This document shows, one piece after another, positions 16,340 through 36,719 of a DNA stretch of 64,000 bases; positions within the stretch are counted from its first letter, which is position 1, and the number at the start of each line of letters is the position of its first letter. The DNA is from Candidatus Woesearchaeota archaeon (lineage in GTDB: Archaea; Nanobdellota; Nanobdellia; Pacearchaeales; GW2011-AR1), in assembly GCA_964342415.1 (NCBI GenBank), contig CAYFFD010000001.1, positions 4,658 through 68,657 of the forward strand, written 5' to 3'. The position numbers were made by a program, and so were the translations under genes. The notes below the pieces were generated by a model. It was given only the letters and a program-made list of their open reading frames with translations. It did no database searches and was not told the DNA's origin.

Positions 16340-17122
16340 ATGAAAAGAAAAAAACAGATCTTTCTACTTTTATTTTTGATTTTGTTCTTTTTTATAATAA
16401 ATTACTCTTTTCTTGATAAAGCACTTGAAAACTTTTTAATTGATTCCGAAACCGTAAGGGTTGAAAGGATTATCGACGGAGACACAATAATAATTAATCA
16501 AACTTCTGTAAGGCTTCTTGGAATTAACTCTCCTGAAAGAGGCGAGACATATTATCCAGAGGCAAAAGAATTTTTGGAAGAATTAATTTTAAATAAAACA
16601 GTTAAACTAGAATTCGGAAGGGAAAAATACGACAAATACAAAAGAATTCTTGCTTATGTTTTTATCAGCAATGAAAATATAAATTTAAAATTAGTTGAAG
16701 AAGGGTTTGCCAACTTTTACTTTCCTTCTGGAAAAGATTTTTATTATAATGATTTTGAATCCTCATGGAAAAAATGTGTTGAAAATAATAAAAATTTATG
16801 TGAAAAATCAAAAAATGTATGTTTAGAATGCATTGAATTGAAAAACTTTGATGTTAAAAATCAGGAAATAATTTTTCACAATTCGTGCAATTTCAACTGC
16901 GATTTAAGCAAATGGGAAATTAAAGATGAAGGAAGAAAAAGTTTTATTTTTCCTGATTTTGTATTGGAAAGTAAAAACGGGGTTAAAATCATTGTGGAAG
17001 AAGGAAATAACAATGAAGAAAATTTATTTTGGAAAAATGAAGAATATGTTTGGACAAAATCAGGAGACACTTTATTTTTAAGAGATGACAAAGGAAGATT
17101 AGTTTTGTGGGAAAATTACTAA
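16340..17122 (+). CDS. secreted staphylococcal-nuclease (SNase/thermonuclease)-like nuclease with extra C-terminal Cys-containing domain
   Basis: It has a signal/TM segment. The SNase-like core is VERIIDGDTII...VRLLGINSPE...YGRILAYVF. Confidence 0.6.
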   Translation: MKRKKQIFLLLFLILFFFIINYSFLDKALENFLIDSETVRVERIIDGDTIIINQTSVRLLGINSPERGETYYPEAKEFLEELILNKTVKLEFGREKYDKYKRILAYVFISNENINLKLVEEGFANFYFPSGKDFYYNDFESSWKKCVENNKNLCEKSKNVCLECIELKNFDVKNQEIIFHNSCNFNCDLSKWEIKDEGRKSFIFPDFVLESKNGVKIIVEEGNNNEENLFWKNEEYVWTKSGDTLFLRDDKGRLVLWENY

Positions 17123-17203: not shown

Positions 17204-20200
17204 ATGGAAAGGGGAAAGTCACTTGCATTATTGAGCATTATATCTTTAATATTATTTTCAAGCTTTATTTTTGCGACACATGTTATTACAACTTCCAGCG
17301 GGGCTTCTTCTTATAGTGTTAATGAGGATGTGAGTTTTAATTATAACATAACTGTAAATAACACTGATTTAGGACAGACAGCAAATATAACTCAAGTCGA
17401 CATAACTCTTCCAAGCTCATTCTCTTTTTTAGCAAATTCAAATGACACGGATTCTCCTAGCACAATATTCACAAATACAAGCGCAGTATTAAGCTGGACA
17501 AACTCAACAAACTTTGTTGTTAATGAAAGTGATGTTAGGAATTTCTGGTTTAATGCAACCGCTTCCACACCTGGAAATTTCAATTTAACTATTACTACAA
17601 CAAATTCAACAGGCAGTTTTTCTTCAAATATCTCTGTTACTATCAATGACACAACAATTCCTTCATCAATAAGTTTTGTTAGTCCTACTTCAAGTAATAA
17701 TTCAAACACTTCACAATCTTACATTCCGATAAATATAACTGCTATAGATAATGGAGTCATCAGCACAATCATAATAAAATTATTCAACTCAACAAACGAC
17801 CAAATAAATTCTTCGAGCAACTCTTCATCACCTTCCCAATTCCTTGCAAACTTTACAGGATTAAGTGATGGAGTTTATTATTTTAACTCAACAGTAAATG
17901 ATACTTTTGGAAATTCTAATTCAACAAGCACAAGAAAAATAACTCTTGACGCATTAGCTCCAAACGTTTTTGGATTCAACAATCCTGTAAGCAATGCAAA
18001 TTTGTCAGGCACGCAAGTTATTAATGCAACAGCAAATGATACAACCCTAACAATAAGCAGTGTGTTTTTCAATATTACAAATTCCAGTGGGCAAATTAGT
18101 TTTTTAGCCACTTCTCAAACAGGGGACAATTGGAACGCAACACTAAACACTTCAGCTTTAACAGATGGAAACTATAACATAACTGTTTACGCAAATGACA
18201 CTGTTGGAAATTTGAATAATTCTGAAAAAATCAGTGTAACCATAGACAACACTTTTCCAACATTAACTTCCTTGTCAGTTTCAGGTGTTTTCAATAATGG
18301 AACAATTAATATCTCGTCGCCGGCAAATCAAGACGGATTGTATGACAACTTAACAATTGACTTGGCATACTCTGAAACAGTGAGCGCCAGCATATTTGTA
18401 ATAAATAGCACAGGAAGTGTTGTCAAGACAATATATTCAATCTCTTCTGTGCAGAATCCTACTGCAAAGGGTTGGGACGGAACCCTAACAGGAGGTGCTA
18501 ATGCATCTGACGGGTTTTACACAATAAATACAACATTTACAGACGAGGCAAACAACACAAACACAACACAGGTTGCAAGCGTCTATGTTGACAACACTGC
18601 TCCTTCTGTCACAATCACTTCACCAAAATCAAATGAGAATTTCACAAAAGATCAATCAGTGCTTTTACTCGGAGCTGTCAGTGATTTAAATGTCGCACAG
18701 TCACTTGTCTTCAATGTATCAAATTCAACTTTCTCTTCAACCTATACAACTGAGAAAAATTTATGGTTCAATAATTCATTTGACATTACAAAACTTGCAG
18801 ATGGTTTTTACAATGTGACTGCAATTGCAAACGATACTTTAGGGAATTTAAACAAAACTGAAAAAGTTCTGATTTTAGTTGATAGCACAGATCCAACAAT
18901 CACAAATTTGAACATAGCGCCTAGCACAATTAACAATGACAATAATGTAACATTAAACGCCACAATCAATGACTCATTTTCAGGAATCTCGAGAGTATGG
19001 GTTTCTTCAAACTTTACAGGAAGTTTTGTGAATTACACAATTTCTGGAAGTGGTCAGAATTATTCTTTCTTGATTAAAAGCGGGAATTTCTCAAATCAAG
19101 AAGTTGTAGGATATCAATGGTTTACGAATGATACTTTAGGAAATGAAGTTAATAGTTCTTTACAAAAATTCAACATCAGCAACAGAGTTCCTGTTTTTGT
19201 AAGCACAGCTATAACAAATGCAACAGAAGATAAAGTTTATACTTATCAAGTCAATACAACAGATAGTGACGGAGATTCTTTGACATATTCATTGACAACT
19301 TCTCCAACAGGAATGGGAATTACTTCAAGTACAGGATTGATTGTTTGGCTTCCTGACAACAGCCAAGTTGGAAACAGCACTGTGTCTGTTTTGGTAAATG
19401 ACAGCAAAGGTGGAACTGCAACGCAGACATTTGCAGTGAATGTGACAAATGCAAATGATATTCCAACAACACCTTCGCTAACCTCTCCATCAAATCAATC
19501 AACTTTGTTAAAGAATTCAACAACATTAAAATGGAATGTATCAACAGATGATGACAATAATACAATAACTTATTATGTATTTTTCTCAAATGAAACAAGC
19601 CCTTCTATTAATGCTACAACAACAAACCCTAATTTAACAGTAAGTGGTCTTGAAGACAACGAAACATATTATTGGAATGTAATCGCAAGCGATGGGATTG
19701 GAAATTCAAGTACAACAGCAACATTGCAATTTAATATTAGTCTTAATAATGCTCCAAATATAACTGCCCACGCACCTTTGCTAAATAAAACAATCTCAGA
19801 AAATCAGACATTGATGTTTAATGCAACAATCTTCGACGTAGATGGAGACAACATAATTTACAATTGGACAATTGACAACGTTCAAAACTCAAGTGCAACA
19901 ACTTCAACAAGCAATGAAACAATATTTTTTAACTACACGCCTTCATTTAGTGATTCGGGAACACATACAATTAAGCTATCTATCAAAGATACTAACAACA
20001 ACTCTGGGACAGCAAAGTCATGGTTAGTAACAGTTTCGAACGACAACAGAGATCCAACACTTAACACAATAATCGATTACTCTGTTAATGAAGATTCAAC
20101 ACTTACATTTGACATAACAGGTTCTGATCCTGATGAAGGAGACACATTAACATATGATTCAAATCTTAGTTCTATTTCTATAACAAAAGTAAATAACACT

Positions 20201-21961
20201 TTAGCTAGAGTTTCGTGGACTCCTACAAACAGCGATGTCGGCGCTAATGCAGTTAATTTCACGTTGAGTGATGGAACTAAAACAGTTTCACAAGTTGCAA
20301 CAATTACAATAGTTAATACAAACGACGCTCCAACGATAACAAGCAGTTCTCCTTCATCTGACCCAATAGTAAAAAACAAAACTGCCCAAACATTTTCTGT
20401 TAGTACTAGCGACGCTGATAGTGATTCATTAAGTATAACATGGTATGTCAATGGAAGCTCAAATGGAACTGGAAGCAGTTTTAGTTTAACAAAAACAATT
20501 TCAGAAAACTCAGAGGTATTCAATATCACTGTTTTTGTGTCAGATGGAACAGAAACAGATTCAAAAGAATGGAAATTAATTGTGACAAGCATCCCTGTTA
20601 CAAGTTCATTCACAGGAAGTGGGACAACAGATTTCTCAACAATCCCTGACTTAAGTTCCGCAACAGATATTGTTCTCGCGGAAAGCGACGGGAAAATTGA
20701 CTTTGGAAATGAAATTCTAGACTTGAGCAACGTTCTTGACTTAGACAATAATATCAAAATTCTTGAAGGAATCGTAGCTATAAATTCTTCAAGATATCCT
20801 CAGTTAAACAAACCAGCGACAATAACTTTAACAGGATTATCTTATAGCACAGCTCCAAAGGTTTTTTCCAATAGCGATTTCACAACAAGCTCAAGCGAAA
20901 TAACAAGTGAATGCAGTTTCTGTAAAATTACTAATTTCACTAAAGCTCCGACAAGCAGTGGAACAGTTATTTTTGAAGTGGAACATTTCAGCTCTTTCAA
21001 GGTTGCAGCAAGTGGAAATAAATTAGACTTGAATTCATTTGACGACTTAGATTTATGTGAAGAAGGAATTATTGGAGATTTAGAATTAGAAATTAAAGAC
21101 CCAGATGAAAGAGATGACTTCAAAATAGGAGACCTAATAAAAATAAAAGTGGATGTTGAAAACAGTGCTGACGAAGACCAAGACGTTATTGTTGAGGCGT
21201 CATTATACAACATTGATGAAGATGATGAAATGGAAAATGATGAAAGCAATGACGAAGAAATAAATGAAGATGATAACGAAATATTTAATCTTGAAATCGA
21301 AGTTCCTGATGACTTTGATGATGGCGACGATTATTTGATATATGTAAAGGCTTACGAAGAGAAGAATGAAGATGAACAATGTGATGAGAAGATAGTTGAA
21401 ATAAAATTAGAAAGAGAAAAACATGATGTTATAATTAAAGATATGGAGATTACACCTTTAACAATTCGTTCTGGAAAAAACCTCAACGTGTTTGTTGATA
21501 TAGAAAACATTGGAAGCAGTGATGAAGATGTTTATGTAACTTTGAAAAATGATGCTCTTGAAATTTTTGAAAAAAGCGAAACTTTTGAACTCGAAGAGCA
21601 AGGTGAAGATGATTTCTTTACTCAAGGATTTTTTGTAAGAATTCCTGACAACACATTAGAGGGAGAATATTCACTTATAATAGAGGCAGTGTTTGATGGT
21701 GAAGAAGACACAAGGACAGAAACAATTTCTGTCTTAAGATCATTGTCTTTAATCAGTACAGATTTTGACGGAGAAATTATTAACCTCAAATATGGAGAAA
21801 AGACAGAAACAATAAAAATAGAAAAAGAAGGTTATTTGAAAAAAGTCAGTTCATCGTCAAAAGAGAAAGATTATTTATTTGTCGTCGCGCTTGCACTTGG
21901 AATATTGATTCTTCTTCTATTAATAGCCGTTATACTAAGTTCAAGAAGAATATTCAGATAA
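17204..21961 (+). CDS. giant surface protein with repeated beta-sandwich domains, many N-glycosylation sequons, acidic linker and C-terminal TM anchor
   Basis: It has a signal peptide and dozens of N-x-S/T sites. Domains of ~100 aa repeat. An acidic block (EDDEMENDESNDEEINEDDNE) is present. The C-terminus has a TM followed by RRIFR. Length is 1585 aa. Confidence 0.6.
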   Translation: MERGKSLALLSIISLILFSSFIFATHVITTSSGASSYSVNEDVSFNYNITVNNTDLGQTANITQVDITLPSSFSFLANSNDTDSPSTIFTNTSAVLSWTNSTNFVVNESDVRNFWFNATASTPGNFNLTITTTNSTGSFSSNISVTINDTTIPSSISFVSPTSSNNSNTSQSYIPINITAIDNGVISTIIIKLFNSTNDQINSSSNSSSPSQFLANFTGLSDGVYYFNSTVNDTFGNSNSTSTRKITLDALAPNVFGFNNPVSNANLSGTQVINATANDTTLTISSVFFNITNSSGQISFLATSQTGDNWNATLNTSALTDGNYNITVYANDTVGNLNNSEKISVTIDNTFPTLTSLSVSGVFNNGTINISSPANQDGLYDNLTIDLAYSETVSASIFVINSTGSVVKTIYSISSVQNPTAKGWDGTLTGGANASDGFYTINTTFTDEANNTNTTQVASVYVDNTAPSVTITSPKSNENFTKDQSVLLLGAVSDLNVAQSLVFNVSNSTFSSTYTTEKNLWFNNSFDITKLADGFYNVTAIANDTLGNLNKTEKVLILVDSTDPTITNLNIAPSTINNDNNVTLNATINDSFSGISRVWVSSNFTGSFVNYTISGSGQNYSFLIKSGNFSNQEVVGYQWFTNDTLGNEVNSSLQKFNISNRVPVFVSTAITNATEDKVYTYQVNTTDSDGDSLTYSLTTSPTGMGITSSTGLIVWLPDNSQVGNSTVSVLVNDSKGGTATQTFAVNVTNANDIPTTPSLTSPSNQSTLLKNSTTLKWNVSTDDDNNTITYYVFFSNETSPSINATTTNPNLTVSGLEDNETYYWNVIASDGIGNSSTTATLQFNISLNNAPNITAHAPLLNKTISENQTLMFNATIFDVDGDNIIYNWTIDNVQNSSATTSTSNETIFFNYTPSFSDSGTHTIKLSIKDTNNNSGTAKSWLVTVSNDNRDPTLNTIIDYSVNEDSTLTFDITGSDPDEGDTLTYDSNLSSISITKVNNTLARVSWTPTNSDVGANAVNFTLSDGTKTVSQVATITIVNTNDAPTITSSSPSSDPIVKNKTAQTFSVSTSDADSDSLSITWYVNGSSNGTGSSFSLTKTISENSEVFNITVFVSDGTETDSKEWKLIVTSIPVTSSFTGSGTTDFSTIPDLSSATDIVLAESDGKIDFGNEILDLSNVLDLDNNIKILEGIVAINSSRYPQLNKPATITLTGLSYSTAPKVFSNSDFTTSSSEITSECSFCKITNFTKAPTSSGTVIFEVEHFSSFKVAASGNKLDLNSFDDLDLCEEGIIGDLELEIKDPDERDDFKIGDLIKIKVDVENSADEDQDVIVEASLYNIDEDDEMENDESNDEEINEDDNEIFNLEIEVPDDFDDGDDYLIYVKAYEEKNEDEQCDEKIVEIKLEREKHDVIIKDMEITPLTIRSGKNLNVFVDIENIGSSDEDVYVTLKNDALEIFEKSETFELEEQGEDDFFTQGFFVRIPDNTLEGEYSLIIEAVFDGEEDTRTETISVLRSLSLISTDFDGEIINLKYGEKTETIKIEKEGYLKKVSSSSKEKDYLFVVALALGILILLLLIAVILSSRRIFR

Positions 21962-22021: not shown

Positions 22022-22846
22022 GTGATAGGAAATGAAATGGATTACGAAAAAAAAGGAAAAGAAGAAGGGAATTATGCTCAAGAAAGAGGGATCTCAAGAA
22101 GAAAATTTTTAATAGGTTCAGCTGCAACAGCTCTTGTTGCAGGTGCTACTTCACCTTTTTTAATACCGGGAAAAGCTTCAGCTGGGTTTTTAGAGGATAT
22201 CTTAAGTTCAGCAGGTTTGCCTGTAGAATATGATAAAACGCTTGCAATTCCTGACCCAACTATAACTCATATAATAGAACATGGAAGACTTCCAGATAAT
22301 TTTGAACTTTATAGAGAAACTATTTCAAAAGATCCTTTTATCCAGTTTTTAACGGAAATAAGAGAACTTCCAAAAGAAGGTTTTAGATATTATATGAGTA
22401 CTACTGCAGATGCTACAGGCAAGAAGCCAAATGCTATAGTTTTCCAACCAGAAAATTTCTCCACTCAATTTAATCCTAGAGAAGATTTTGTTGAAGTTTC
22501 TCGTGAAGAAGGTTTAAGTTATTTCCCTTCAATGATTAATGGAACTAAAGGAAATCGCTTCTCTCAAAAAAATTTTGTTCAAAGATTAGGGTACTATGAT
22601 GAAGAAGGAAGAGAAGTTGTATATGCAATAGGCATTCAAACTAGTGGTGAAGATAATGGTAAAACCCTAGGTTATAGAAATGCTATGATTCTTAATAAAT
22701 CAAAATTTAGTTTATACTCATCTACTAGTGATGGAGATGGTGGAGGTGGAGGAATTGGTGCTGGCCCTAGTGGAGAAGCTGGTGGTGGGCCTACCGGAGA
22801 TGCTACTGGTGGTGGAGGTCAAGCTGGAGGAGACGGAGCAAAATAA
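22022..22846 (+). CDS. secreted protein with twin-arginine signal and Gly-rich C-terminus
   Basis: SRRKFLIGSAATALVAGA is a Tat-like signal. The tail is GGGGIGAGPSGEAGGG. Confidence 0.45.
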   Translation: MIGNEMDYEKKGKEEGNYAQERGISRRKFLIGSAATALVAGATSPFLIPGKASAGFLEDILSSAGLPVEYDKTLAIPDPTITHIIEHGRLPDNFELYRETISKDPFIQFLTEIRELPKEGFRYYMSTTADATGKKPNAIVFQPENFSTQFNPREDFVEVSREEGLSYFPSMINGTKGNRFSQKNFVQRLGYYDEEGREVVYAIGIQTSGEDNGKTLGYRNAMILNKSKFSLYSSTSDGDGGGGGIGAGPSGEAGGGPTGDATGGGGQAGGDGAK

Positions 22847-22853
22847 AAATAAA

Positions 22854-24506
22854 ATGAATTTAAAAAATATTCAACTTAAAAAAAAGAATTTGATTTTTGG
22901 ACTTGTTGCAATGTTATTTGTAATTCCCTTTGTTCTTGCTGTAACAGGAATAATTCAAATAGATAGTTTTTTCGATAGTTCAACAGGACAACCATTAAAT
23001 GGTGTTGAGATCTTGCTATTTTCTTGTGGAGATACTTCATGTAACAACATTGGCTCGCAAATTTTTAATTTAAATTCAGGAGCAACTAATCAAATAACAT
23101 TTGAATATCCTTACAATCCTTCTTCAACAGAAGGCAATCAAGATTATTTTGCACATTATTTTTTCAAAGAAGATTACCTTCCTAAAGAATATGTTGAACA
23201 TGTTTGGGGATTTGGTGCAACACTTGAATACGATTATAATTTCAACAAGGCGCAATCATGCCATTCACCAATTGATTCTTTCAGTATTACAAATTCAAAT
23301 TATGTAAATGAACCAGTTGTTGTAAGTGTAGAAGCAATTCTTGAAGCAGATGCACACAGCGCTTTCACAAATCTTCTCTTGGATTTTATTCCTTCAGGAT
23401 TTGAAGACTATTATTCTGCTGAAACAGAAATAACAGTTGAGATACTTGATGAAAATGATAATGTTGTAAATACAGAAAGCAAGACATATGAAATTCTTGC
23501 AGACACTTCGCAGAACGTTGTGTTCACATGGACTCCAAGCCAAGAAGGAAATTATAGTGCAAGAGTAAAGACAGATGTTATTGATTCTCAATGCCAAAGC
23601 AGCTTTGAGCAATTCTCTGAAAAGCAGTTTCTTGTTTGGGAAGAAAGACCTCAAAACCAGTGTTACACAATAATAAATGACTTGGAAGCAACACCTGAAT
23701 TTGCAAAACAAGGAGATTTAGTAACAGTAAGATTCAACAAGATAAGCAATTTCGCGGATGATAATTTTTCAAAAACGCCAATTCAAACAAGAGCAACATA
23801 TGAAATAACAGACAGCCAGAATAATGTTGTTTTCTCTGACAATCTTTTGTTAAATGCCAATGCAAATGATACTGATTATCAAGAAATTACTTTCACATGG
23901 ACTCCAAACTTCGGAGAAAATTTTAACGTAAAGGTTACAGGTATTGGAGAAGATTCTTTGTGTGATGGAAAAACAAATCCTCTAGACGCAGCGATTTTAG
24001 GTTTTTTCGTGGAATCCGCAGAAACATATGATGTTTTATTTGTTGTTTCTGATTCTGAAACAGACGTAAATCTAAATGAGGCAAATGTTGTCTTTGAAAG
24101 CCAAAATGGAAAAACAAATTCTGCAGGAAAAGTTACTTTCACTTCAAATCCAGGAAGTTTTAATTGGATTGTGTCCTCAACAGGATATGAATCAAAAACA
24201 GGAACAGCAGATATCACAGGAGATGTTACAATAAATGTGGCTCTTGATAGAATTCTAATTGTTGAAGATGACGATGATGACGATAGCAGCAGTGGAGGTG
24301 GGAGTAGTGGAAGTAGAACAAGGCAAATTAATTTCCCTGTTTTAAGCGCTTCTCCAAGCGGAATTCCTGCACAAATATCTACTATAGATTTAAGTGAAGG
24401 AGATGAAAAGCCTGAATCAAATGCATTGGTATGGTTTTTAATAATTGCTGAATTAATAGTTGTTCTAGGAATTGTCTTGTTTTTAGTAAGAAAAAGATTT
24501 AGTTAA
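22854..24506 (+). CDS. surface protein with C-terminal TM anchor
   Basis: The likely start is MNLKNIQLKK at 22854, because the longer ORF overlaps the upstream gene. It has a signal peptide. The C-terminus runs DDDDDDSSSGGGSSGS...WFLIIAELIVVLGIVLFLVRKRFS. Confidence 0.5.
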   Translation: MNLKNIQLKKKNLIFGLVAMLFVIPFVLAVTGIIQIDSFFDSSTGQPLNGVEILLFSCGDTSCNNIGSQIFNLNSGATNQITFEYPYNPSSTEGNQDYFAHYFFKEDYLPKEYVEHVWGFGATLEYDYNFNKAQSCHSPIDSFSITNSNYVNEPVVVSVEAILEADAHSAFTNLLLDFIPSGFEDYYSAETEITVEILDENDNVVNTESKTYEILADTSQNVVFTWTPSQEGNYSARVKTDVIDSQCQSSFEQFSEKQFLVWEERPQNQCYTIINDLEATPEFAKQGDLVTVRFNKISNFADDNFSKTPIQTRATYEITDSQNNVVFSDNLLLNANANDTDYQEITFTWTPNFGENFNVKVTGIGEDSLCDGKTNPLDAAILGFFVESAETYDVLFVVSDSETDVNLNEANVVFESQNGKTNSAGKVTFTSNPGSFNWIVSSTGYESKTGTADITGDVTINVALDRILIVEDDDDDDSSSGGGSSGSRTRQINFPVLSASPSGIPAQISTIDLSEGDEKPESNALVWFLIIAELIVVLGIVLFLVRKRFS

Positions 24507-27401: not shown

Positions 27402-28100
27402 ATGAAAAAGAGTGATAGAAGAGGGCAATTTTATCTGTTTGTGACAATAATACTTCTTTCAGTAATTGTTGGAATTGCGACCTTGTCGAATTTTTCTCAA
27501 AAGCAAACAAACGTTAACTTTCAATATGTAAAGGACGAGTTGAATATAGAAAGTGAAAAAGTTTTAGACTATGGATTAAAAAACAACAAAGACACAAAAG
27601 TACTTTTAACAGATTTTACAAAAACATATTCAAACTATTCTGACGCTGACAATTTTTATTATGTTTTCGGAGACAAGGGGGAAATTACAATTTCAGGATA
27701 CAAGAAATTTTCTTCTGGGACAGTTTTGTTTGACTTAGGAAATGGAAGCCAAGAATGGAACATAAACGAAGGAGTTTATGCCTCGCAAAGTTTTTCCAAT
27801 CCTAAAAGAAACATCAACCTTACTATTGATGAAATTATTTATGACTTCACGCTAAGGCGCGGAGAGAATTTCTACTTCATACTTTCAAAAGAAACAAACG
27901 GAGAAGTTTATATTTTAAGCAATAGCTATTATGATGAAAATCTTGGGGAATGGGGTGCTTGTGGAAATGGAGTTATAGAAAGTGGAGAAACATGTGACGA
28001 TGGTAACACAAATAGTGGTGATGGTTGTTCAAGTTCTTGCCAGATAGAAGATATTGGAGGCGGTGGAGGTGAAGGTGGTGGAGATGGTGAAGCACAATAA
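27402..28100 (+). CDS. pilin-like protein with class III (type IV pilin) signal and C-terminal cysteine-rich repeat
   Basis: The N-terminus is MKKSDRRGQ followed by FYLFVTIILLSVIVGIA. The C-terminus CGNGVIESGETCDDGNTNSGDGCSSSCQ matches the Myxococcus-type Cys-rich repeat. Confidence 0.55.
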   Translation: MKKSDRRGQFYLFVTIILLSVIVGIATLSNFSQKQTNVNFQYVKDELNIESEKVLDYGLKNNKDTKVLLTDFTKTYSNYSDADNFYYVFGDKGEITISGYKKFSSGTVLFDLGNGSQEWNINEGVYASQSFSNPKRNINLTIDEIIYDFTLRRGENFYFILSKETNGEVYILSNSYYDENLGEWGACGNGVIESGETCDDGNTNSGDGCSSSCQIEDIGGGGGEGGGDGEAQ

Positions 28101-28257
28101 AAATAAAATCAATTCAGAAATTATTTTCTATTAAGATTAACATTGAGATCATATCCTGAAATTTTTAAAGAATCACATCCATTAGAAAAATTTCCTAAAG
28201 AAGAAGTCCATCCATTTAAAGAATGATAAACTTCTAATTTTTCAAAGTTATCCATTT

Positions 28258-28539
28258 TCAATTTACCCTGATAGTTTTTTGTCCCTTTAGAACATAAATT
28301 CCCCCTTTTGTTTTTCTCCCTGAAAAAGAACCATCTTTTGTTTGTGTAAATTCAACTTCTTGCTCATACCCTGAATACTCAGCATCCCAATCTCCAGATA
28401 TATCACAAACTCTCTCTCCGCTAGGAAGAACTACTGAATTTGGGGTATTAGCATCTAATGGGGTTAGTGGTTTTGGTGGTTCTGCAGTAGCACACGCTAC
28501 TTCCAAAGCTCCTATTCCTAAAGCCCCTACAACTGCCAT
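28258..28539 (-). CDS. hypothetical small protein, GC-richer than context
   Basis: It is 93 aa. ALGIGALEVACATAEPP looks like a signal or lipobox. It runs antisense to the pilus-locus orientation. Confidence 0.2.
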   Translation of the reverse strand: MAVVGALGIGALEVACATAEPPKPLTPLDANTPNSVVLPSGERVCDISGDWDAEYSGYEQEVEFTQTKDGSFSGRKTKGGIYVLKGQKTIRVN

Positions 28540-28682
28540 GTTCTTCTAATATCTTGATATCTTGATTTCATTTTAATTCCTTATATTTGAAGATTGGAGC
28601 GATTATTTATTTATAAGGATTGTTGTAATAAGGAAATTATCGAAATCTAAAAATTAATAAATAATAAAATGGTGACATAACT

Positions 28683-29384
28683 ATGAAAAAAGAGGCTTGG
28701 AAAAATCAATTTTTCTTTCTAAGAGATCGCAGAGGAATAAGCGTCATGATTGGTTATGTTCTTTTGGTAACAATTACAATAATAATAAGCACAATAATGT
28801 ATCAATGGCTTAACACTTACATTCCAACAGAGTCTTTGGATTGTCCTGATGGTGTTTCGGTTTTTGTAGAAGAGACAAGATACAACTGCACAGAAAAAAT
28901 TCTTGACTTCACGATAAAAAACAACGGAAGGTTTGACATTGCAGGTTACTTCATACACGGAACGAATTCCTCAAGCCAAGGACTTGCAACAATAGCATTA
29001 TCTCAGTACAGTAATCTGAGTGCAGAAGGAGAAATCATCTTTGATGCAGACAATAATTTTCTAAAGCCAAACAATAAATTAGACAACATATTCGATCTTA
29101 GCAATACTTCTTTCGGGCAAATTCAATCGCTTGAAATAATTCCAATAAGATATCAGCCAGTCAACAACAAAAATAGAATTGTCAGTTGCAGTGATTCAAA
29201 AATAAGAGAAGTAATTAGCTGTTATACAGGAAGTGTTCCATGTATCCCTGAAGATGTCTCTGTGACTTGTGGAACATGGGTTTGTGGTTCTAAAACAAAT
29301 AATTGTGGTGATGCGGTATCATGCCTACCAGGATGTACTTTACCGGAAACCTGTAATGCAAACGGGCAATGTACACAAGGGTAA
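28683..29384 (+). CDS. pilin-like protein with class III signal and Cys-rich C-terminus
   Basis: The N-terminus is ...LRDRRG followed by ISVMIGYVLLVTITIIISTIMY. The C-terminus is CGTWVCGSKTNNCGDAVSCLPGCTLPETCNANGQC. Confidence 0.55.
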   Translation: MKKEAWKNQFFFLRDRRGISVMIGYVLLVTITIIISTIMYQWLNTYIPTESLDCPDGVSVFVEETRYNCTEKILDFTIKNNGRFDIAGYFIHGTNSSSQGLATIALSQYSNLSAEGEIIFDADNNFLKPNNKLDNIFDLSNTSFGQIQSLEIIPIRYQPVNNKNRIVSCSDSKIREVISCYTGSVPCIPEDVSVTCGTWVCGSKTNNCGDAVSCLPGCTLPETCNANGQCTQG

Positions 29385-29842
29385 CACAAATTGATTTCTC
29401 AGGCTTTGAATCAGGAACACAAGGATGGACTTTTGGTGGATCAGATGGTGACAGAAGCAATAAAAGAAGTAATGTCGATGATTCAGGAGTTTTAGGAGGA
29501 ACATGGTCAGCACACTTACAAGATGATTCATCAACTTCAGAATTCTTAAAAAATTTTGACTTTGCCGGAGGCTATAGCCATGTTAACATATCATTTGGTT
29601 ATTATCCTAAAAGTATTGATAATAATGAGTATGTTCAACTTCTTTGCGATGGTGTTGAAGTTTGGAGGTTTACAAAGGGTGCTCATGGACAAAATGCATG
29701 GTTTTCTACAAAAGTTAAAGTCGAGATAACAGATTGTAATTTTGATTCTTCAGTTGAAATAAAGTTTGAAGGAAATCCAGGATTGTCAGGAAATTCAGAT
29801 GACATTTGGGTGGATGGTATAAATATAACAGGAATATTATAA
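29369..29842 (+). CDS. hypothetical protein, possibly a C-terminal extension of the upstream pilin-like gene
   Basis: It overlaps the upstream stop by 16 nt in the +2 frame and has no signal of its own. It is rich in G, S, D and W. Confidence 0.3.
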   Translation: MYTRVTQIDFSGFESGTQGWTFGGSDGDRSNKRSNVDDSGVLGGTWSAHLQDDSSTSEFLKNFDFAGGYSHVNISFGYYPKSIDNNEYVQLLCDGVEVWRFTKGAHGQNAWFSTKVKVEITDCNFDSSVEIKFEGNPGLSGNSDDIWVDGINITGIL

Positions 29843-29901: not shown

Positions 29902-30441
29902 ATGAAGATGATTAATTTTAATCTCCTTTCAAAAAACAATAAAGTAAATCAAAGATTTCCATTTGTCCGAATTTTTCCAAATTCAAACAAAGGGGTTTCA
30001 CCCATGATTGCAACTGTCCTTCTAATAGGAATGGTTGTTGTTATTGCCTTAATTATTTTTTTATGGTTCAAAGGATTCTCACAAGAAGCAATAGTAAAAT
30101 TCGACAAAAATGTAGAACTCGTGTGTGATGAAGTCAAGTTTGAAGCAAGCTATTCAGGAGATACGTTGGCTGTATCAAATATTGGGAATGTTCCTGTTTA
30201 TAACATCAAAGTAAAAATCTTGGAAAATGGTAATTTTGAAACAAAAGATTTAAATGACCTATCTTCAAATTGGAAGAACGCTGGATTAAATCCAGGAAGG
30301 GTTTTTTCAGATGACATAAGCTCCAGCATTGGAAGTGCAGACAGCGTAACTTTGACTCCTGTTTTAGTAGGAAGCTCTGAAAAAGGAGAAAGAACTTTTA
30401 CATGCAATGAAGCAAGATATGGTCACACAATTAATTTATAA
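29902..30441 (+). CDS. archaeal type IV pilin (class III signal peptide)
   Basis: It has NKG followed by VSPMIATVLLIGMVVVIALIIF. This is the conserved archaeal adhesion-pilin (PilA-type) H-domain. Confidence 0.6.
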   Translation: MKMINFNLLSKNNKVNQRFPFVRIFPNSNKGVSPMIATVLLIGMVVVIALIIFLWFKGFSQEAIVKFDKNVELVCDEVKFEASYSGDTLAVSNIGNVPVYNIKVKILENGNFETKDLNDLSSNWKNAGLNPGRVFSDDISSSIGSADSVTLTPVLVGSSEKGERTFTCNEARYGHTINL

Positions 30442-30952
30442 AGTGATTTTTAAAAAAAACAAAAAAGGGGTTTCTGGGATTATTGCAACGGTAATCATGA
30501 TTGGGTTAGTTATTGCAATCGCTGCGATTTTATGGAGTGTTGTAAATAATTTAATAGGAGAACAAGTTAGTTCAAGCGAATCCTGTTTTGGAAATTTCGG
30601 AAAAGTCACATTAAACAAGCAATACGTATGTAAAGATTCTATTGCAAACGAAATTCAATTTGCAATAAATATAGGGGACATAGATGTTGATAGTGCCTTA
30701 GTCTCTGTTTCAGGGCAATCAGGAACAAAAAGTTTCGAAATAAAAAATAGCACAACATATAGTTATGTCAAAATGTTTGGTGGAAGTTATGGAGGAGCAT
30801 TGCAGCTTCCTGGAGAAAATGCTGGATTAACTTATGTTGTTGGTTTAACGACTCTTGGGATCACAGACGCAACATCAATAAAAATCGCTCCAGTGTTAAA
30901 TGGAAACCAATGCGAAGTTTCTGATTCTATAACATCAATTGGTAGTTGCTGA
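30407..30952 (+). CDS. archaeal type IV pilin (class III signal peptide)
   Basis: It has KKG followed by VSGIIATVIMIGLVIAIAAIL. Confidence 0.6.
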   Translation: MKQDMVTQLIYKVIFKKNKKGVSGIIATVIMIGLVIAIAAILWSVVNNLIGEQVSSSESCFGNFGKVTLNKQYVCKDSIANEIQFAINIGDIDVDSALVSVSGQSGTKSFEIKNSTTYSYVKMFGGSYGGALQLPGENAGLTYVVGLTTLGITDATSIKIAPVLNGNQCEVSDSITSIGSC

Positions 30953-30993: not shown

Positions 30994-31515
30994 TTGTTCA
31001 TGAAAAAAAGAGGGCAGATTTGGATAGAGGTAGTTATTTACACCTTAATTGCATTGAGTTTAATCGGGGCTGTTCTCGCTTTTATAACTCCAAAGATAGG
31101 GGAAATTCAGGACAAAGCAATTATCGAACAAAGCATTACGATGATGCAAAACATAGACACAGTTATTTCATCAGTTGCTATTGGAGGTCCTGGAAATAAA
31201 AGAATAATTGACTTAGGAATAAAAAAAGGAGCACTAACAATAGATGCACAAAAAGATGAGTTTGTTTTTGAAATGGAAAGTGAATATGAATATAGTCAAC
31301 TAGGAGAGGAAATAAACATTGGCGATATAATTGCGCTGACAGAAGAAATAGGAAGTTTAAACAAAATAACACTAAAGATGAATTATAGTGAATATGATTT
31401 AACCTACAATGGAAAAAATGAAACAAAATTAATCACAAAAGCTTCAACACCTTACAAATTGTCAATTGAAAACAAAGGGGGAACAAAGACAATAATCGAA
31501 ATTATTGTTAGTTAA
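30994..31515 (+). CDS. pilin-like protein (class III signal, RGQ type)
   Basis: It has MFMKKRGQ followed by IWIEVVIYTLIALSLIGAVLAF. Confidence 0.5.
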   Translation: MFMKKRGQIWIEVVIYTLIALSLIGAVLAFITPKIGEIQDKAIIEQSITMMQNIDTVISSVAIGGPGNKRIIDLGIKKGALTIDAQKDEFVFEMESEYEYSQLGEEINIGDIIALTEEIGSLNKITLKMNYSEYDLTYNGKNETKLITKASTPYKLSIENKGGTKTIIEIIVS

Positions 31516-31545: not shown

Positions 31546-33108
31546 ATGGAAGTTATCAAAAAAAAGAGGGGAATACAGGATTATCCAAAAGTCTTGATAA
31601 ATTTTTCTCCAAAAATTCCTCCTCTAAAAAAACTCTCTGACAAAACAAAAGTCAACATAAGGTATTCATTGATTCATCCTTTCGCATTTGCACATATTTA
31701 TTGGGATCCAAAAATTTACGAATTAGTATATGAAGTGGAAGAGCCATATTTAAATGAAACAGAAAAAAAACACAGGGAAGAAATAGTCTCTGCAATGGAA
31801 AATATGATTAATCTTGGAGATATTGTAGATAAAAAAAGAGAAGTTGTCTTAGAATATATTGACAGAATGTTCAAAATTTTAGTGATAGAGCTTGGAATAG
31901 AACTCTCATATCAAAGCTACAAAAAAATATTTTATTATCTTAGTAGAGATTTTATTGGTTTCAACAAAATAGAACCCTTGCTAAGAGATTATTTTGTTGA
32001 AGATATAGAATGCAACGGACTTGATACTCCTATTTATGTTGTGCATCGGGCTTATCGAAACATGAAAACAAATATTAAATTCAATGACTTGGACAAGCTT
32101 TCAAATTTTGTTGAGAAACTTGCTCAAAAAACTGGAAAATATGTTTCCTATGCAAATCCAATTCTCGATGGAAGCCTACCTGATGGAAGCAGAGTTAATG
32201 CAACTTACACTAAAGACATAACAAGCAAGGGTCCAACATTCACGATAAGAAAATTTACAAAAACTCCATGGACCCCTCCTCAGCTTATAAAATTCAATAC
32301 ATTAAGCCCTGAGATGGTTGCTTATTTGTGGATATTAATTGAGCATAAAATGAATATTTTACTCACAGGAGGAACTTCTTCCGGAAAAACAACTTTGCTT
32401 AATGCAATCGCGTTTTTCATTCCTCCAGAGGCAAGAGTTGTTAGTATTGAAGACACTCGTGAATTAAACCTTCCAAGAGAGAACTGGCTTCCAAGCGTTG
32501 CAAGAAATTCAACAGGTGTTGGAAACATCGGAGAAATTGATTTATTCACTTTGCTAAGAAGCTCTTTCAGGCAGAATCCTGATTATGTAATTGTCGGAGA
32601 AGTCAGGGGAAAAGAAGCGTCTGTTTTATTTCAAGGAATGGCTTCAGGACATTCTTCACTAAGCACAATGCACGCCGACTCCGTGGACACTGTAATAAAA
32701 AGACTTGAAACTCCTCCTATCGAACTTTCACCAACATTGTTGAATGTTCTTGACTGTGTTTGCATCATGACTCATGCAATTGTAAAAAAGCAAGAGACAA
32801 GAAAATTAAAAGAAATTGTGGAAATAATAAACGTAAATCCAAATGGAATCGCCTTAACAAACACACCTTTTTTATGGAATCCTTCAGATGATAGCTTTTA
32901 CTTTAAAAAAAACAGCAAGATATTTGAAAAAATTTCAAGAAGAAGCGGATTAAAAATTGAAGAACTTGAATTAGAATTCAGAAAAAGAGCGCAATTGATT
33001 CATAAAATATCTCAAGAGAAAATTTTCGAATTTGAAAAATTTCAGGGAATAGTAAATGAATATTACAAAAAACCTGAAGAAGTTCTAAAAAAATTTGGAA
33101 TTATGTAA
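31546..33108 (+). CDS. type IV pilus/secretion ATPase (PilB/FlaI/TadA, VirB11 superfamily)
   Basis: It has Walker A LLTGGTSSGKTTLLNA and Walker B/Asp box IVGEVRGKEA. The His box is present. Length is 520 aa. Confidence 0.85.
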   Translation: MEVIKKKRGIQDYPKVLINFSPKIPPLKKLSDKTKVNIRYSLIHPFAFAHIYWDPKIYELVYEVEEPYLNETEKKHREEIVSAMENMINLGDIVDKKREVVLEYIDRMFKILVIELGIELSYQSYKKIFYYLSRDFIGFNKIEPLLRDYFVEDIECNGLDTPIYVVHRAYRNMKTNIKFNDLDKLSNFVEKLAQKTGKYVSYANPILDGSLPDGSRVNATYTKDITSKGPTFTIRKFTKTPWTPPQLIKFNTLSPEMVAYLWILIEHKMNILLTGGTSSGKTTLLNAIAFFIPPEARVVSIEDTRELNLPRENWLPSVARNSTGVGNIGEIDLFTLLRSSFRQNPDYVIVGEVRGKEASVLFQGMASGHSSLSTMHADSVDTVIKRLETPPIELSPTLLNVLDCVCIMTHAIVKKQETRKLKEIVEIINVNPNGIALTNTPFLWNPSDDSFYFKKNSKIFEKISRRSGLKIEELELEFRKRAQLIHKISQEKIFEFEKFQGIVNEYYKKPEEVLKKFGIM

Positions 33109-33144: not shown

Positions 33145-33330
33145 ATGAAAGATGGTGATAAATTTTTAACAAAAGAAGAGATTTCTTTTCTTAATCAACT
33201 TATAAAATCTCTCGAAGAATCAAACAAAAAGCTTGAAGAGTATTATATAAAAAAAGATTACAAGAATTTCAAGAATGTTAAAAAATTCATGTTGGAAATT
33301 CAAAAAAAAATTTCTAAAGCGATAAAATGA
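33145..33330 (+). CDS. small coiled-coil protein
   Basis: It is 61 aa and translationally coupled to the ATPase and platform genes. Confidence 0.3.
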   Translation: MKDGDKFLTKEEISFLNQLIKSLEESNKKLEEYYIKKDYKNFKNVKKFMLEIQKKISKAIK

Positions 33331-34700
33331 TTCATGAAGGAAAATTTTTTCAAGAGTTAAAAAATAGTATTTCAAGAGAAGTGGAAATAATTAAAGAAAT
33401 GAATTCTTTTTTTAATAATTTAGAAAGCCATGATCAAGAAGAAAAGGATATGGTTTTTTCACAAACAAGTTCTTTAAAAAAATTATTAAAAAAGGAGAAT
33501 GATAATATTTTGATAGCATTGAATAAAATATCTCTTGTAAAGCCACTCCAGAATTCACAAATTCATTCTAAATTGCCAAGAAGCCAAATCAGAACATTAT
33601 TACTTAAAGACCAAAGTAAAACCTCTAATGAAAATTTTTTAATGCCTCAAACTAAAAAGAAAAAAAATTTCATTGAAAAAATTTCTCAAAAAAGATCTCT
33701 TTACAAAAAATTTTCCTTGAAAAAATTTGAAAAAGATACTCTTAAAAGAATTGGGAAAAAAGAAAAAGAAATCGTTGGCAAAAAAACAAAAAAGCCAAGC
33801 ACATATGTTAGTTTAGCTAATAGGCTTTTTTCAAACGTTTCATCTTCCTTAATTGAAAAAGGAATGTTCAAAAACTTAAACGAGAATCTCTCAAGAACAA
33901 ATAGGGAATTTCTTCTTAAAGGTTATGTCTCGATAATTCTTTTTACAACACTACTCTCTGTAATTGCGGGAATTTTTACTTTCACGTTTTTCCTATTTTT
34001 CAATATCCAAATTGCCTTTCCTTTCATAACAATGACTAGTGATTTATTTATGACAAGATTCTTGAAAGTGTTCTGGATTTTGTTTGCAGTTCCAATTGCG
34101 ACTTTCTCATTTGCATATTTTTATCCTGCACTCGAAAAAGACTCTCTTGAAAAAAGAATTAATCAGGAACTTCCTTTTGCAACAATAAACATGGCAGCTA
34201 TTTCGGGCTCAATGATTAATCCAACAGAAATATTCAGTATAATTGTCTCGACAAAAGAATATCCAATCCTTGAAAAAGAATTTATAAAAATAATAAACGG
34301 CATGAATGTCCTTGGATATGATTTGATTACCGTATTAAGAAACAGTGCCTTCCACAGCCCGAGTAAAAAACTCGCTGATTTGCTAAATGGAATTGCGACC
34401 ACTGTAAACTCTGGCGGAGATCTAGGAAAATTCTTTGATGAAAGAGCGAAGAACCTTCTTTTCGAATATGATCTTGAAAAAGAAAAAAGCACAAGAGCTG
34501 CAGAAACCTTCATGGATATCTACATCAGCGTTGTTATCGCAACCCCTATGATTTTGATGCTTTTGTTAATCATGATGCAAATCAGTGGTTTAGGGATATC
34601 CTTAAGCACAGGAATGATTACCTTAATAATGGTTTTAGGAGTCACTGCAATAAACATTGTCTTCTTATCATTTTTGCACATAAAACAATCAAACGAATAA
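33327..34700 (+). CDS. pilus platform membrane protein, TadC/PilC/FlaJ-like (T2SSF domain), N-terminal half with K-rich extension
   Basis: It has a ~170-aa charged N-terminus followed by TM helices. The layout of cytoplasmic domain plus TM pairs is typical of a T2SSF domain. Confidence 0.55.
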   Translation: MIHEGKFFQELKNSISREVEIIKEMNSFFNNLESHDQEEKDMVFSQTSSLKKLLKKENDNILIALNKISLVKPLQNSQIHSKLPRSQIRTLLLKDQSKTSNENFLMPQTKKKKNFIEKISQKRSLYKKFSLKKFEKDTLKRIGKKEKEIVGKKTKKPSTYVSLANRLFSNVSSSLIEKGMFKNLNENLSRTNREFLLKGYVSIILFTTLLSVIAGIFTFTFFLFFNIQIAFPFITMTSDLFMTRFLKVFWILFAVPIATFSFAYFYPALEKDSLEKRINQELPFATINMAAISGSMINPTEIFSIIVSTKEYPILEKEFIKIINGMNVLGYDLITVLRNSAFHSPSKKLADLLNGIATTVNSGGDLGKFFDERAKNLLFEYDLEKEKSTRAAETFMDIYISVVIATPMILMLLLIMMQISGLGISLSTGMITLIMVLGVTAINIVFLSFLHIKQSNE

Positions 34701-34701
34701 A

Positions 34702-35532
34702 ATGGAAATTAAAAAAACTCATTGGATTGGAATAGTTGTATCAGGATTGGTTATGCTATCTTCATTGTTTTTCATAGAAACAAGGTGGTTTTTCATTTTT
34801 ATAGGAACAGGGATTATAATTGGAGTTCTTCCTTTTGTGTTCTCAACAATACGCGAAACAAAGGTTGAAAATGAAAAAGAAGAAATGTTCCTTGAATTTG
34901 CAAGAAATTTGGCGGAAAGCGGAAAAACAGGAATTCCAATAAGCAAAAGTATAATCAATGTCAAGGACAGGGCTTATGGAGTTTTAAGCAGGCATATTAA
35001 AAAATTAGCAAACCAAATTTATTTAGGAATTCCTTTGGGAAGTGCATTAAAAGTATTTTCAAGAGATGTAAATAACAAAACAATTTCTAGAGCAATAACT
35101 CTTATAGGACAAGCAGAAAAATCAGGAGGAGATATTGCAGAAATTCTAGAATCTGTTGCAGGAGCCGTAAACACTTCTGATAAGTTAAAGAAAGAAAGAA
35201 AAGCAGTAATATCCACGTTAGTTGTTCAAGGATATATAATTTTTGTTATCTTTATAGTAATAATTCTTGTTTTGCAATTCAAGATAATTCCAATGATTGA
35301 AGGAGTAGGAAGCTTAGGACTAGGAGAAACAGCAGGAACAGTTCCTAGCGATGCAGGTGGTACTGATGTGTCAAGTGTTTTTTTCTATTTGCTTATAATC
35401 CAAGGACTTTTTAGCGGTCTAACAATAGGAAAGCTAGCAGAGAAAAACTTCAAGGCAGGAATAAAACACTCATTCACTTTGATGTTCCTTGCATTCATAG
35501 TTTCTTCAGCAGCCAATATCTTTTTTGGTTAA
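34702..35532 (+). CDS. pilus platform membrane protein, second T2SSF-like domain (TadB/TadC-like)
   Basis: It starts 2 nt after the previous stop. It has TM-loop-TM topology with a cytoplasmic helical domain (EFARNLAESGKTGIPISKSI...). Confidence 0.5.
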   Translation: MEIKKTHWIGIVVSGLVMLSSLFFIETRWFFIFIGTGIIIGVLPFVFSTIRETKVENEKEEMFLEFARNLAESGKTGIPISKSIINVKDRAYGVLSRHIKKLANQIYLGIPLGSALKVFSRDVNNKTISRAITLIGQAEKSGGDIAEILESVAGAVNTSDKLKKERKAVISTLVVQGYIIFVIFIVIILVLQFKIIPMIEGVGSLGLGETAGTVPSDAGGTDVSSVFFYLLIIQGLFSGLTIGKLAEKNFKAGIKHSFTLMFLAFIVSSAANIFFG

Positions 35533-35556: not shown

Positions 35557-36282
35557 TTGGCTATTTATTTAATGAAAAAGAAAAGAGGAGGCACTCATGT
35601 AGGATTTATGCTCTCATTTGTGATATTTGTGGTTTTTCTAATTTTTATTTATTCAATTCTCATAGAGCCAACAATAACTCAAAGTGATAAAAAGTCTGCT
35701 TTAGAAAATTTAAAAATAAGATTAATTGAAAAAGTTTCTGAAGACTTAACTTCAACAGCGGTAAATCTAAAAATTTCTAATCCAAGTGAAAATTGTATTG
35801 AACTAAAAAATTTTATATCTCAAGCAGAGATAAGCCCAAATATTATCTCTAAAAATAATAACAATGTTTTACAATCATACGTTTCCTCAAACAATCTAAA
35901 AATAGAAAGATGGAGTAGTGAAATCTTTTTTAAGATATATTATTCAAAAGAATTTGAAGCATTAAGTTCAGGAGGATCAAATTGCAAGAGAGTTAATGAA
36001 AACCAATACGCTATTGGTTTAATAAAAGTTGAAGAGTATGTTTTTGAAAATAAAATTATTGATTTGATTAACAGCTATAAAGTAGATTATGAACAGCTTA
36101 AAGAAGAATTAAAAATCCCTTTTGGAAGCGATTTCGGCTTTGGCTTTACATATGGTAATGGAACATTAATAACAACAGAAAAAAATGTGTCTACAAATGT
36201 CTATGCTTCCGAAATTCCTGTTCAATATGTCAATAAAAACGCAGAGGTTCTGTTAGGTTTTATAAATATAAAAACATGGTGA
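35557..36282 (+). CDS. pilin-like protein (possible class III signal)
   Basis: It has KKKRGG followed by THVGFMLSFVIFVVFLIFIYSIL. Confidence 0.4.
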   Translation: MAIYLMKKKRGGTHVGFMLSFVIFVVFLIFIYSILIEPTITQSDKKSALENLKIRLIEKVSEDLTSTAVNLKISNPSENCIELKNFISQAEISPNIISKNNNNVLQSYVSSNNLKIERWSSEIFFKIYYSKEFEALSSGGSNCKRVNENQYAIGLIKVEEYVFENKIIDLINSYKVDYEQLKEELKIPFGSDFGFGFTYGNGTLITTEKNVSTNVYASEIPVQYVNKNAEVLLGFINIKTW

Positions 36283-36719
36283 TAAAAATGTTAAAAAAAA
36301 GAGGATGGCTAAGAATTGTTGAGGCGTTTGTTATGATATTATTAATAACAGGAGTTTTATTAATAGTTTTAGACAAAGGATCTCTCCTAAAAAATAATGA
36401 TTCTAAAAAGATTTATGAAGACGAACAAGGAATTTTAAGAAAAATTCAGCTGAATAATTCATTGAGAGATGTTGTCTTAAGTTTTCCTTTAAGTGAATTA
36501 CCAATTGAATGGGTAGATTTTTCTTTAGACATTAAAAACAAAATAATTTCAAAAACACCTTCTTACTTAAATTGTGAGGCAAAAATCTGTAATGTAAATG
36601 GAATTTGTGTTTTAAGCCAAGCCAATGAAAAAAGTGTTTATGTGCAATCAACAATTTTTACTTCAACTTTGGACAAAAATGATCCAAGACAGTTAAAATT
36701 ATTTTGCTGGAAAAAATAA
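36276..36719 (+). CDS. pilin-like protein (class III signal)
   Basis: It has KKRG followed by WLRIVEAFVMILLITGVLLIVL, with a Glu near +5/+6 of the mature end. Confidence 0.45.
   Translation: MVIKMLKKRGWLRIVEAFVMILLITGVLLIVLDKGSLLKNNDSKKIYEDEQGILRKIQLNNSLRDVVLSFPLSELPIEWVDFSLDIKNKIISKTPSYLNCEAKICNVNGICVLSQANEKSVYVQSTIFTSTLDKNDPRQLKLFCWKK

Follow-up and report, generated by a model that had tools for sequence, protein, structure and literature searches.

The closest described counterparts of the proteins reported here are bacterial modular pilins, among them the Streptococcus sanguinis adhesins PilB, with a vWA module, and PilC, with a lectin module (Raynaud et al., 2021, PMC8179133). The modular pilins surveyed in that study are bacterial (IPR012902), and its text never uses the word 'archaea'. 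A second point of comparison is provided by CofB and TcpB, minor pilins of the type IVb pili of enterotoxigenic Escherichia coli (ETEC) and Vibrio cholerae, which are located at the tip and initiate assembly or mediate adhesion (PMC8179133). Among the archaea, the type IV filament (TFF) 'system 1', which is the Epd pilus of Methanococcus maripaludis, and the systems of some DPANN archaea have a platform split into two genes (bioRxiv 10.64898/2026.04.22.720090). A pilin of Pyrobaculum is already known to have an additional, disulfide-bonded domain at its C-terminus. In the literature that could be searched, we found no account of pilins tailed with Cys repeats from DPANN or any other archaea. 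Here, we analyse a stretch of 64,000 nucleotides (nt) from a Candidatus Woesearchaeota archaeon (assembly GCA_964342415.1, contig CAYFFD010000001.1, forward-strand positions 4,658 to 68,657; hereafter the window, in whose coordinates all positions are given). Two of its open reading frames (ORFs), gene A (ORF1, 27402..28100, + strand, 232 aa) and gene B (ORF2, 28683..29384, + strand, 233 aa), encode pilin-like proteins with Cys-rich C-termini. We propose that A and B are probably modular pilins of an archaeal kind, with adhesive modules displayed at their outer ends.

The likeness of A and B to the bacterial modular pilins lies in a complete pilin module that carries a C-terminal graft through a short linker, in the diversity and shuffling of the grafted modules, in the presence of lectin types among them and in the adhesive role proposed for them. 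Unlike the bacterial proteins, however, the A and B scaffold is archaeal and bears archaeal class III motifs, and the grafts, which often stand in series, would be small disulfide knots. With CofB and TcpB the two proteins share the succession of pilin module, linker and beta-rich C-terminal domains, but no relation in sequence or fold. The locus resembles TFF 'system 1' in its two-gene platform and its many different pilins, some of which have Gln at +1, whereas no EpdA-type peptidase gene is present in the window and Cys-repeat tails are not described for that system. As with the substrate-binding proteins of the Sulfolobus bindosome, a class III signal would put a binding domain on the cell surface; unlike in the bindosome, the carrier is a full pilin core within a pilin operon, and no transporter genes lie nearby. 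Finally, in comparison with TIGR02232/PF13948 proteins, A passes both models but has a single copy on a pilin, whereas those proteins carry long tandem arrays on large secreted polypeptides; B is not a member of that family.

A conserved type IV pilus operon begins with A and B. Relatives of B were found at 71 loci in species-representative metagenome-assembled genomes (MAGs), nearly all labelled Nanoarchaeota, Woesearchaeota or Pacearchaeota. The gene order A-B-C-D-E-ATPase(-TadC x2) is retained across independent loci, with an A gene directly 5' of B in nearly all of them, and the secretion ATPase and TadC/FlaJ platform co-encoded with A and B have the same layout in the related loci. Two more pilin-like genes close the operon, which holds seven such genes.

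The N-termini of both proteins agree with this setting. Each leader is basic, ends in RRG and passes at once into a hydrophobic run: A begins MKKSDRRG/QFYLFVTIILLSVIVGIATL, with a leader at 27402..27425 (+) and a predicted prepilin-peptidase site at G8/Q9, and B begins MKKEAWKNQFFFLRDRRG/ISVMIGYVLLVTITIIISTIMY, with an 18-aa leader at 28683..28736 (+) and a predicted site at G18/I19. Family A has 15 full-length members and family B 55 homologues, and these motifs are family-wide. The logo of family A, K-[RK]-G/Q-F-Y-L-x-A-A-I-I-I, is found in 40/47 members, and G8-Q9-F10 is invariant in the family A alignment (A2); the logo of family B, K-[KR]-[GA]/[VIL]-S-x-M-I-G-Y-V-L-L, is found in 72/85. 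In both families the motif falls precisely where the basic leader gives way to the hydrophobic helix. Because it precedes the hydrophobic stretch, we read it as a class III signal and not as a signal for signal peptidase I (SPase I). The original prediction, made from the DNA letters alone, had proposed two pilin-like genes at these positions, each with an RRG class III signal followed by a hydrophobic helix, and this part of it is borne out by the family-wide motifs, by the operon context and by the structure predicted for B.

That structure is a confident one. The AlphaFold2 (AF2) model of B has a mean predicted local distance difference test score (pLDDT) of 90.1 and shows a helix (residues 16-45) followed by a beta sandwich, the lollipop topology, with the 8-Cys tail modelled at a pLDDT of ~95. 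In addition, PF07790 is annotated in precomputed data on two B homologues, P0135 and P0144. In the model of A, an N-terminal helix of 56 residues (aa 5-60) is joined by another helix and by a beta domain of nine strands, and the core has pLDDT values of 80-90. The predicted N-terminal helices of A and B proteins span 30-55 residues and are continuous with the globular domain. The evidence for pilin identity is nonetheless thinner for A than for B, and the pilin status of A is argued from its N-terminal motif, its topology and its fixed place beside B.

Both proteins end in Cys-rich strings, which had been noticed at the outset, and these belong to two kinds of module. All four Cys residues of A fall within aa 187-213 (CGNGVIESGETCDDGNTNSGDGCSSSC; 27960..28040, +), a single TIGR02232/DUF4215 repeat. 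It is followed by a Gly/acidic C-terminal tail (GGGGGEGGGDGEAQ; 28056..28097, +), evident in the sequence and not conserved in P0002 or P0003, the other tailed A proteins. B contains 12 Cys residues, of which four belong to the core and the other eight to aa 187-230 (8-Cys module 'A', CIPEDVSVTCGTWVCGSKTNNCGDAVSCLPGCTLPETCNANGQC; 29241..29372, +). Against a Cys content of 0.9% in the long ORFs of the window, both clusters greatly exceed what chance would give (binomial P = 1e-4 for the four Cys among 27 residues of A and 5.7e-9 for the eight among 44 residues of B). The suggestion that both modules are of the Myxococcus type holds for A, whose aa 186-217 match TIGR02232 at 47.1 bits (cut-off 20.8, E = 1.5e-12) and PF13948 at 30.2 bits (cut-off 27). 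It fails for B: no match of its module to TIGR02232 or PF13948 was obtained even at E ≤ 1, and homology to DUF4215 is ruled out by hhalign, which gave a probability of 1.4% when the family of B modules (22 instances) was aligned with 279 DUF4215 units. The spacing of Cys residues thus fits a repeat family in each protein, but not the same one.

The module of B is a true repeat family, uncurated and other than DUF4215, and it has no counterpart in Pfam, NCBIfam or PDB sequences. Its consensus is C-x-PE-x-x-S-x-TC-G-x-W-VCG-x3-NNCG-x2-V-x-C...C...C...GQC. The alignment of the 22 instances has seven invariant Cys columns, the eighth being split by the alignment, together with conserved CG motifs. 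One or two copies occur on 23 B-type ORFs, and the module is also found on proteins with class III signals and quite different cores (979 aa in L088, 830 aa in L101 and 428 aa in L093). Tandem arrays of 4-10 copies, with up to 95 Cys residues, occur on secreted proteins of 418-909 aa encoded by contigs of 65-72% GC (L102-L110 and L112), which look bacterial. The module kit appears to be common to DPANN pilins and these presumably bacterial Cys-repeat proteins. A profile search with the module alignment (A5, 44 aa) against a database of 5.8 billion proteins returned nothing at E ≤ 1e-3, the query being too short for a database of that size.

DUF4215 units are not confined to A. When the unit of A was aligned by hhalign with the DUF4215 units found in B-family tails, the probability was 97.6%, whereas no relation between the A and B cores could be detected by the same method. 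Because the units align and the cores do not, DUF4215 has been grafted onto two scaffolds.

Comparison with orthologues indicates where the grafts begin. The core ends at aa ~174 in A and at aa 180 in B, and tail-less orthologues are 165-200 aa long. Most orthologues end right after the core, as in L008-L011, where A and B are both 172 aa, so that the C-terminal Cys-rich add-ons are true fusions. We took a census of tails in the 70 species-representative genomes that encode a full B core. A tail of at least 40 aa is present on B in 29/70 of these (41%); 25 of the 29 are Cys-rich, with up to 48 Cys residues in 319 aa, five contain DUF4215 and four have, in the same ORF, a C-terminal domain of the kind discussed below as ORF3. 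Tails on A were seen in 0/~66 species genomes, and tailed A proteins were found only in the window and as P0002 and P0003. The fusion of a pilin to a Cys-rich module therefore recurs in related genomes, and the architecture, originally called unusual, deserves that word in A, with its two other examples, but not in B.

The long tails of B are themselves modular and are assembled from the 8-Cys module, a second 8-Cys variant (CTDTC...), DUF4215 or another unit, and a terminal module; in many of them the terminal module is conserved, ends in CCCxP and belongs to no curated family. In eight species genomes (L018, L022, L026, L030, L031, L050, L055 and L069), a long B is paired with a tail-less B paralogue, which in most cases follows directly after the long gene. 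The tails are accessory and shuffled. In a separate observation, the MAG that encodes P0003 has a locus (L113, 4581-6734) in which an A protein of 300 aa and an adjacent B protein of 399 aa are both tailed with DUF4215, the only such locus seen.

The tail of B in the window is not complete as annotated. As the ORF stands, B does end in its Cys module, at the 3' boundary of 29384 originally given for it. Relatives, however, continue into a domain of ~150 aa, and the corresponding sequence lies here in the -1 frame, in ORF3 (29369..29842, +, 157 aa, no signal peptide), so that this boundary is too short. ORF3 overlaps the 3' end of ORF2 by 16 nt; within the frame junction (29357..29384, +), the -1 frame is open from 29357 and the stop codon of ORF2 is at 29382-29384. 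Homologues of ORF3 number 135 in 1.84 billion representatives, and nearly all of them form one domain of a larger protein. Among those fetched, 12 are B-type pilins encoded by one ORF and ending in this domain, with the stretch between core and domain made up of Cys modules (some with DUF4215) or of a Ser/Gly linker; the domain is also present on D-type (P0215) and other pilins. Insertion of one base after the C230 codon fuses ORF2 and ORF3 (...CNANGQC-x-TRVTQIDFSGFESGTQGW...), and the repaired fusion aligns end to end with the single-ORF proteins P0179, P0184 and P0197 (E = 1e-106 to 1e-100; for P0179, aa 13-384 against 4-356, E = 1e-106). ORF2 is incomplete and forms the front part of a split modular pilin.

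Seven assemblies, obtained from different samples with different pipelines, have the same junction and are 99.9-100% identical over 2.6 kb without gaps. Agreement of this kind rules out an assembly error and shows the frameshift to be real in the population. The detached module itself, for which no Pfam match was found in the window copy, appears to be a beta-sandwich domain. Among 19 family members, Reelin_subrepeat-B is matched by eight (best E = 7.9e-6), MAM by one (1.1e-6), Mann_GBD_bact by two and CBM_4_9 by one, and the family profile gave weak matches to CBM22 and CBM27 in the PDB (E = 0.007-0.1). The family therefore looks galactose-binding-domain-like or MAM-like, which for ORF3 of the window is a hint at the level of the family.

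Together, these observations suggest how A and B may work. Both would be synthesised with class III signals and, after Sec insertion, would be cut by a prepilin peptidase at the two sites given above. The hydrophobic N-terminal helix would then serve as polymerisation and anchor element, and the subunits would be incorporated into a pilus assembled by the ATPase and platform proteins encoded next to them. On each, a small module, presumably extracellular and stabilised by disulfides, is attached through a short linker to the C-terminus of a complete pilin core: one DUF4215/TIGR02232 repeat on A and one uncurated 8-Cys module on B. In relatives, a lectin-like (galactose-binding-like) beta-sandwich follows the 8-Cys module, which, alone or in series with more Cys modules, would act as a rigid spacer. 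In this population, a 1-nt frameshift has parted the terminal domain from B and left it in ORF3, so that B would be made truncated, ending in its Cys knot. The modules would face outwards from the pilus, whether at its tip or along its shaft, and their most likely role would be to bring about or modulate attachment to host cells or particles. An exposed adhesive role of this kind is suggested by the lectin-like nature of the ORF3-type domain and by analogy. The tails in the window are small (53-58 aa), which makes tip and shaft both sterically conceivable.

Several observations weigh against this proposal. First, no match of A to a curated pilin family was found in Pfam or NCBIfam; its model resembled generic beta sandwiches (E > 3e-3) but no pilin of solved structure; and its DUF4215 tail was modelled with a pLDDT of only ~31. 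Second, the profile matches of B fall under the thresholds (UpsA, NF046073, E = 1.3e-7, 31.8 bits against a cut-off of 130; Pilin_N, 15.6 bits against 25.2), and the match of its model to the Sulfolobus solfataricus pilus (6w8x_A) in Foldseek is weak, with a probability of 1.0 but an E-value of 2.3e-3 and a low template-modelling score. PDB sequence searches with the A and B profiles likewise gave insignificant matches only, and the two cores show the lack of relation already described. Third, no A24-family prepilin peptidase was found among the scanned ORFs of the window. Fourth, the function of the DUF4215 family is unknown, although its repeats are present in a diatom adhesive-trail protein, and a position of the tailed subunits at the tip is argued by analogy with bacterial modular pilins. 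Finally, the frameshift in B may mean that part of the system is decaying in this lineage.

Some of these points would also be expected if A, B or both were pilin-like but unpolymerised proteins anchored in the membrane, comparable to FlaF/FlaG of the archaellum or to the sugar-binding proteins of the Sulfolobus bindosome, which have class III signals, with their Cys modules placed at the cell surface or S-layer. Class III signals occur on non-pilin surface proteins, a theme touched on in PMC4858521, and with seven pilin-like genes in the operon not all need be filament subunits. The ATPase, moreover, scores on the bindosome BasE model (213.9 bits), though far under the cut-off. Such an arrangement is most plausible for A, given the missing curated and structural pilin matches. 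Against it, A and B are the most conserved pair and open the pilin cluster, the N-terminus and the predicted fold of B are those of a canonical archaeal pilin, and neither transporter genes nor genes resembling those for substrate-binding proteins lie nearby. We therefore consider an unpolymerised anchor unlikely, and prefer incorporation of A and B into a pilus.

The split of B could in principle be functional, with a programmed -1 frameshift or coupled re-initiation yielding a short pilin together with a long, lectin-like pilin at low frequency. ORF3 is intact over 157 codons in an AT-rich genome and is 58-64% identical to its relatives, the 28-nt overlap region does not vary among the seven assemblies, and the repaired product is fully colinear with the single-ORF relatives. 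However, the junction (29357..29384) contains neither a slippery heptamer (X XXY YYZ) nor a homopolymer, and the RNA downstream of it folds no better than shuffled sequences (z = +1.47). For want of a slippery site and a downstream structure, the ORF2/ORF3 arrangement is read as a recent fixed frameshift, that is, as a split or decaying gene, rather than as recoding. ORF3 by itself has no signal peptide, and a recent fixed frameshift is also the simpler explanation of the data. A clean split of this kind was seen in no other of the ~100 loci examined; in L061 the domain is encoded by an overlapping ORF of its own, but masked bases occur in that stretch. We thus regard functional recoding as very improbable.

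That A and B are ordinary secreted or twin-arginine translocation (Tat)-exported Cys-rich proteins, cleaved by SPase I and with RRG as a twin-arginine motif, is scarcely credible: both leaders in the window do contain RR, and Cys-rich repeats are found as well on secreted proteins that are not pilins and have ordinary signal peptides, but the Arg pair is conserved in neither family (both have K-[RK]-G), which rules out a Tat signal, the conserved motif stands before and not after the hydrophobic stretch, both genes lie inside a pilus operon, and the long predicted helices run into the globular domain.

In addition to its tails, the locus is distinguished by the spacer between A and B. In related loci, the gap between the two genes has a median of -17 nt and is at most 121 nt in 49/51 cases, whereas the spacer in the window (28101..28682) is atypically long at 582 nt and contains two small ORFs convergent with A, one of 44 aa (28121..28255, -) and one of 93 aa with a lipobox-like N-terminus (28258..28539, -). 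No degraded remnants of pilin tails were found in the spacer when 310 collected proteins were compared with it by tblastn (every match E > 0.01). Repeats in the DNA, tandem or dispersed, that would explain the region were likewise not found, and the matches of the spacer within the window amount to one 35-nt stretch at chance level. The 93-aa ORF (..GALEVAC), which has no Pfam or NCBIfam match, is 46% identical over 90 aa to a convergent ORF (1676-1924, -) in locus L114 (tblastn E = 2.6e-17). This homologue adjoins P0002, the only other DUF4215-tailed A protein for which a downstream flank is at hand, and there the tailed A gene and the small ORF are located between the F and G pilin-like genes described below, not 5' of B. 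Since the pairing is kept at a different place in the L114 locus, the tailed A gene and the convergent small gene look like a movable two-gene unit.

These features of the tails and the spacer invite a further reading, which we regard as possible but doubtful, namely that the add-ons of A and B are host- or surface-specificity determinants of the pili of Woese- and Pacearchaeota-type DPANN archaea. In such a scheme, the determinants might be diversified by shuffling of modules and by exchange of cassettes, with a kit shared with the high-GC, bacterial-looking contigs, and the frameshift in B could represent a recent switch in binding. The shuffled kit might then comprise DUF4215, the 8-Cys repeat, the terminal 'CCC' module and the lectin-like domain. 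The tailed A gene with the convergent small lipoprotein-like gene could tentatively be taken as an example of an exchanged cassette.

The remaining genes of the operon lie downstream of ORF3 on the + strand. Pilin C (29902..30441, 179 aa), whose position is conserved in related loci, matches TIGR02537 at 32.5 bits (cut-off 20) and UpsA at E = 9e-11, and pilin D (30407..30952, 181 aa) likewise matches TIGR02537 at 32.5 bits (cut-off 20). The pilin-like protein E (31000..31515, 171 aa, MKKRG/QIWIEVV...), also conserved in position, has no meaningful match to a curated family, its hits being limited to a sub-threshold TIP49 match in Pfam (17.2 bits, cut-off 23.8) and none in NCBIfam. It is followed by a FlaI/PilB-type secretion ATPase (31546..33108; PF00437 T2SSE, E = 1.8e-33; NF058587 FlaI, 398.5 bits, under the cut-off of 550) and by two TadC/FlaJ-like platform genes (33327-34700 and 34702-35532), each of which matches PF00482 T2SSF. 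The class III-like genes F (35557-36282, ..KKKRG/GTHVGFMLSFVIFVV) and G (36276-36719, ..KKRG/WLRIVEAFVMILLITG) close the cluster; their homologues flank the cassette of A with DUF4215 in L114 and L115.

Large predicted surface proteins are encoded on both sides of the pilus operon. Upstream are a protein of 1585 aa with many Ig-like, PKD and cadherin-like domains (17204-21961, +) and one of 592 aa with a C-terminal membrane anchor (22728-24506, +); downstream are a Cys-rich protein of 427 aa with repeated TNAH motifs and a C-terminal anchor (38474-39757, +) and a PKD protein of 885 aa (39794-42451, +). An Ig-rich protein of ~1900 aa is also encoded 5' of the pilin genes in L008-L011. A predicted secreted nuclease with SNase and lamin-tail domains (16340-17122, +) and a matrixin/astacin-like metalloprotease with a CARDB domain (11365-12294, -) are extracellular degradative enzymes of a sort typical of host-dependent ultra-small archaea. 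Elsewhere in the window, a presenilin-type signal-peptide peptidase (PF06550; 47103-48059, -) is a GxGD aspartyl protease and not an A24 prepilin peptidase, and a 139-nt Rfam tRNA match (11047-11185, +, 52.8 bits), for which ARAGORN makes no call, is consistent with an intron-containing archaeal tRNA.

The window as a whole is part of the chromosome of a low-GC marine DPANN archaeon. Its GC content is ~31%, and its archaeal core genes include those for MCM, thermosome, EF1A/EF2, proteasome alpha and beta subunits, exosome subunits, Rad50/Mre11-like proteins, FttA, RtcB and TrmB, as well as the tRNA just mentioned. Tara Oceans assemblies and one NCBI MAG contain exact or near-exact copies of the locus.

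Little is known of how ultra-small DPANN archaea locate hosts or particles and stay attached to them, and pili are prime suspects. Even if the proposal of modular pilins should prove wrong, the analysis would leave useful corrections to annotation, in that ORF2 is truncated and its tail is not of the Myxococcus type. It also yields two building blocks that are worth curating, the uncurated 8-Cys repeat and the widespread galactose-binding-like domain of ~150 aa that goes unrecognised by Pfam in ORF3. If the proposal holds, the idea of modular pilins would be extended from bacteria to archaea, and B would be a hot-spot pilin gene with interchangeable outer modules, disulfide-knotted and lectin-like, and with that a testable candidate for the seat of specificity.

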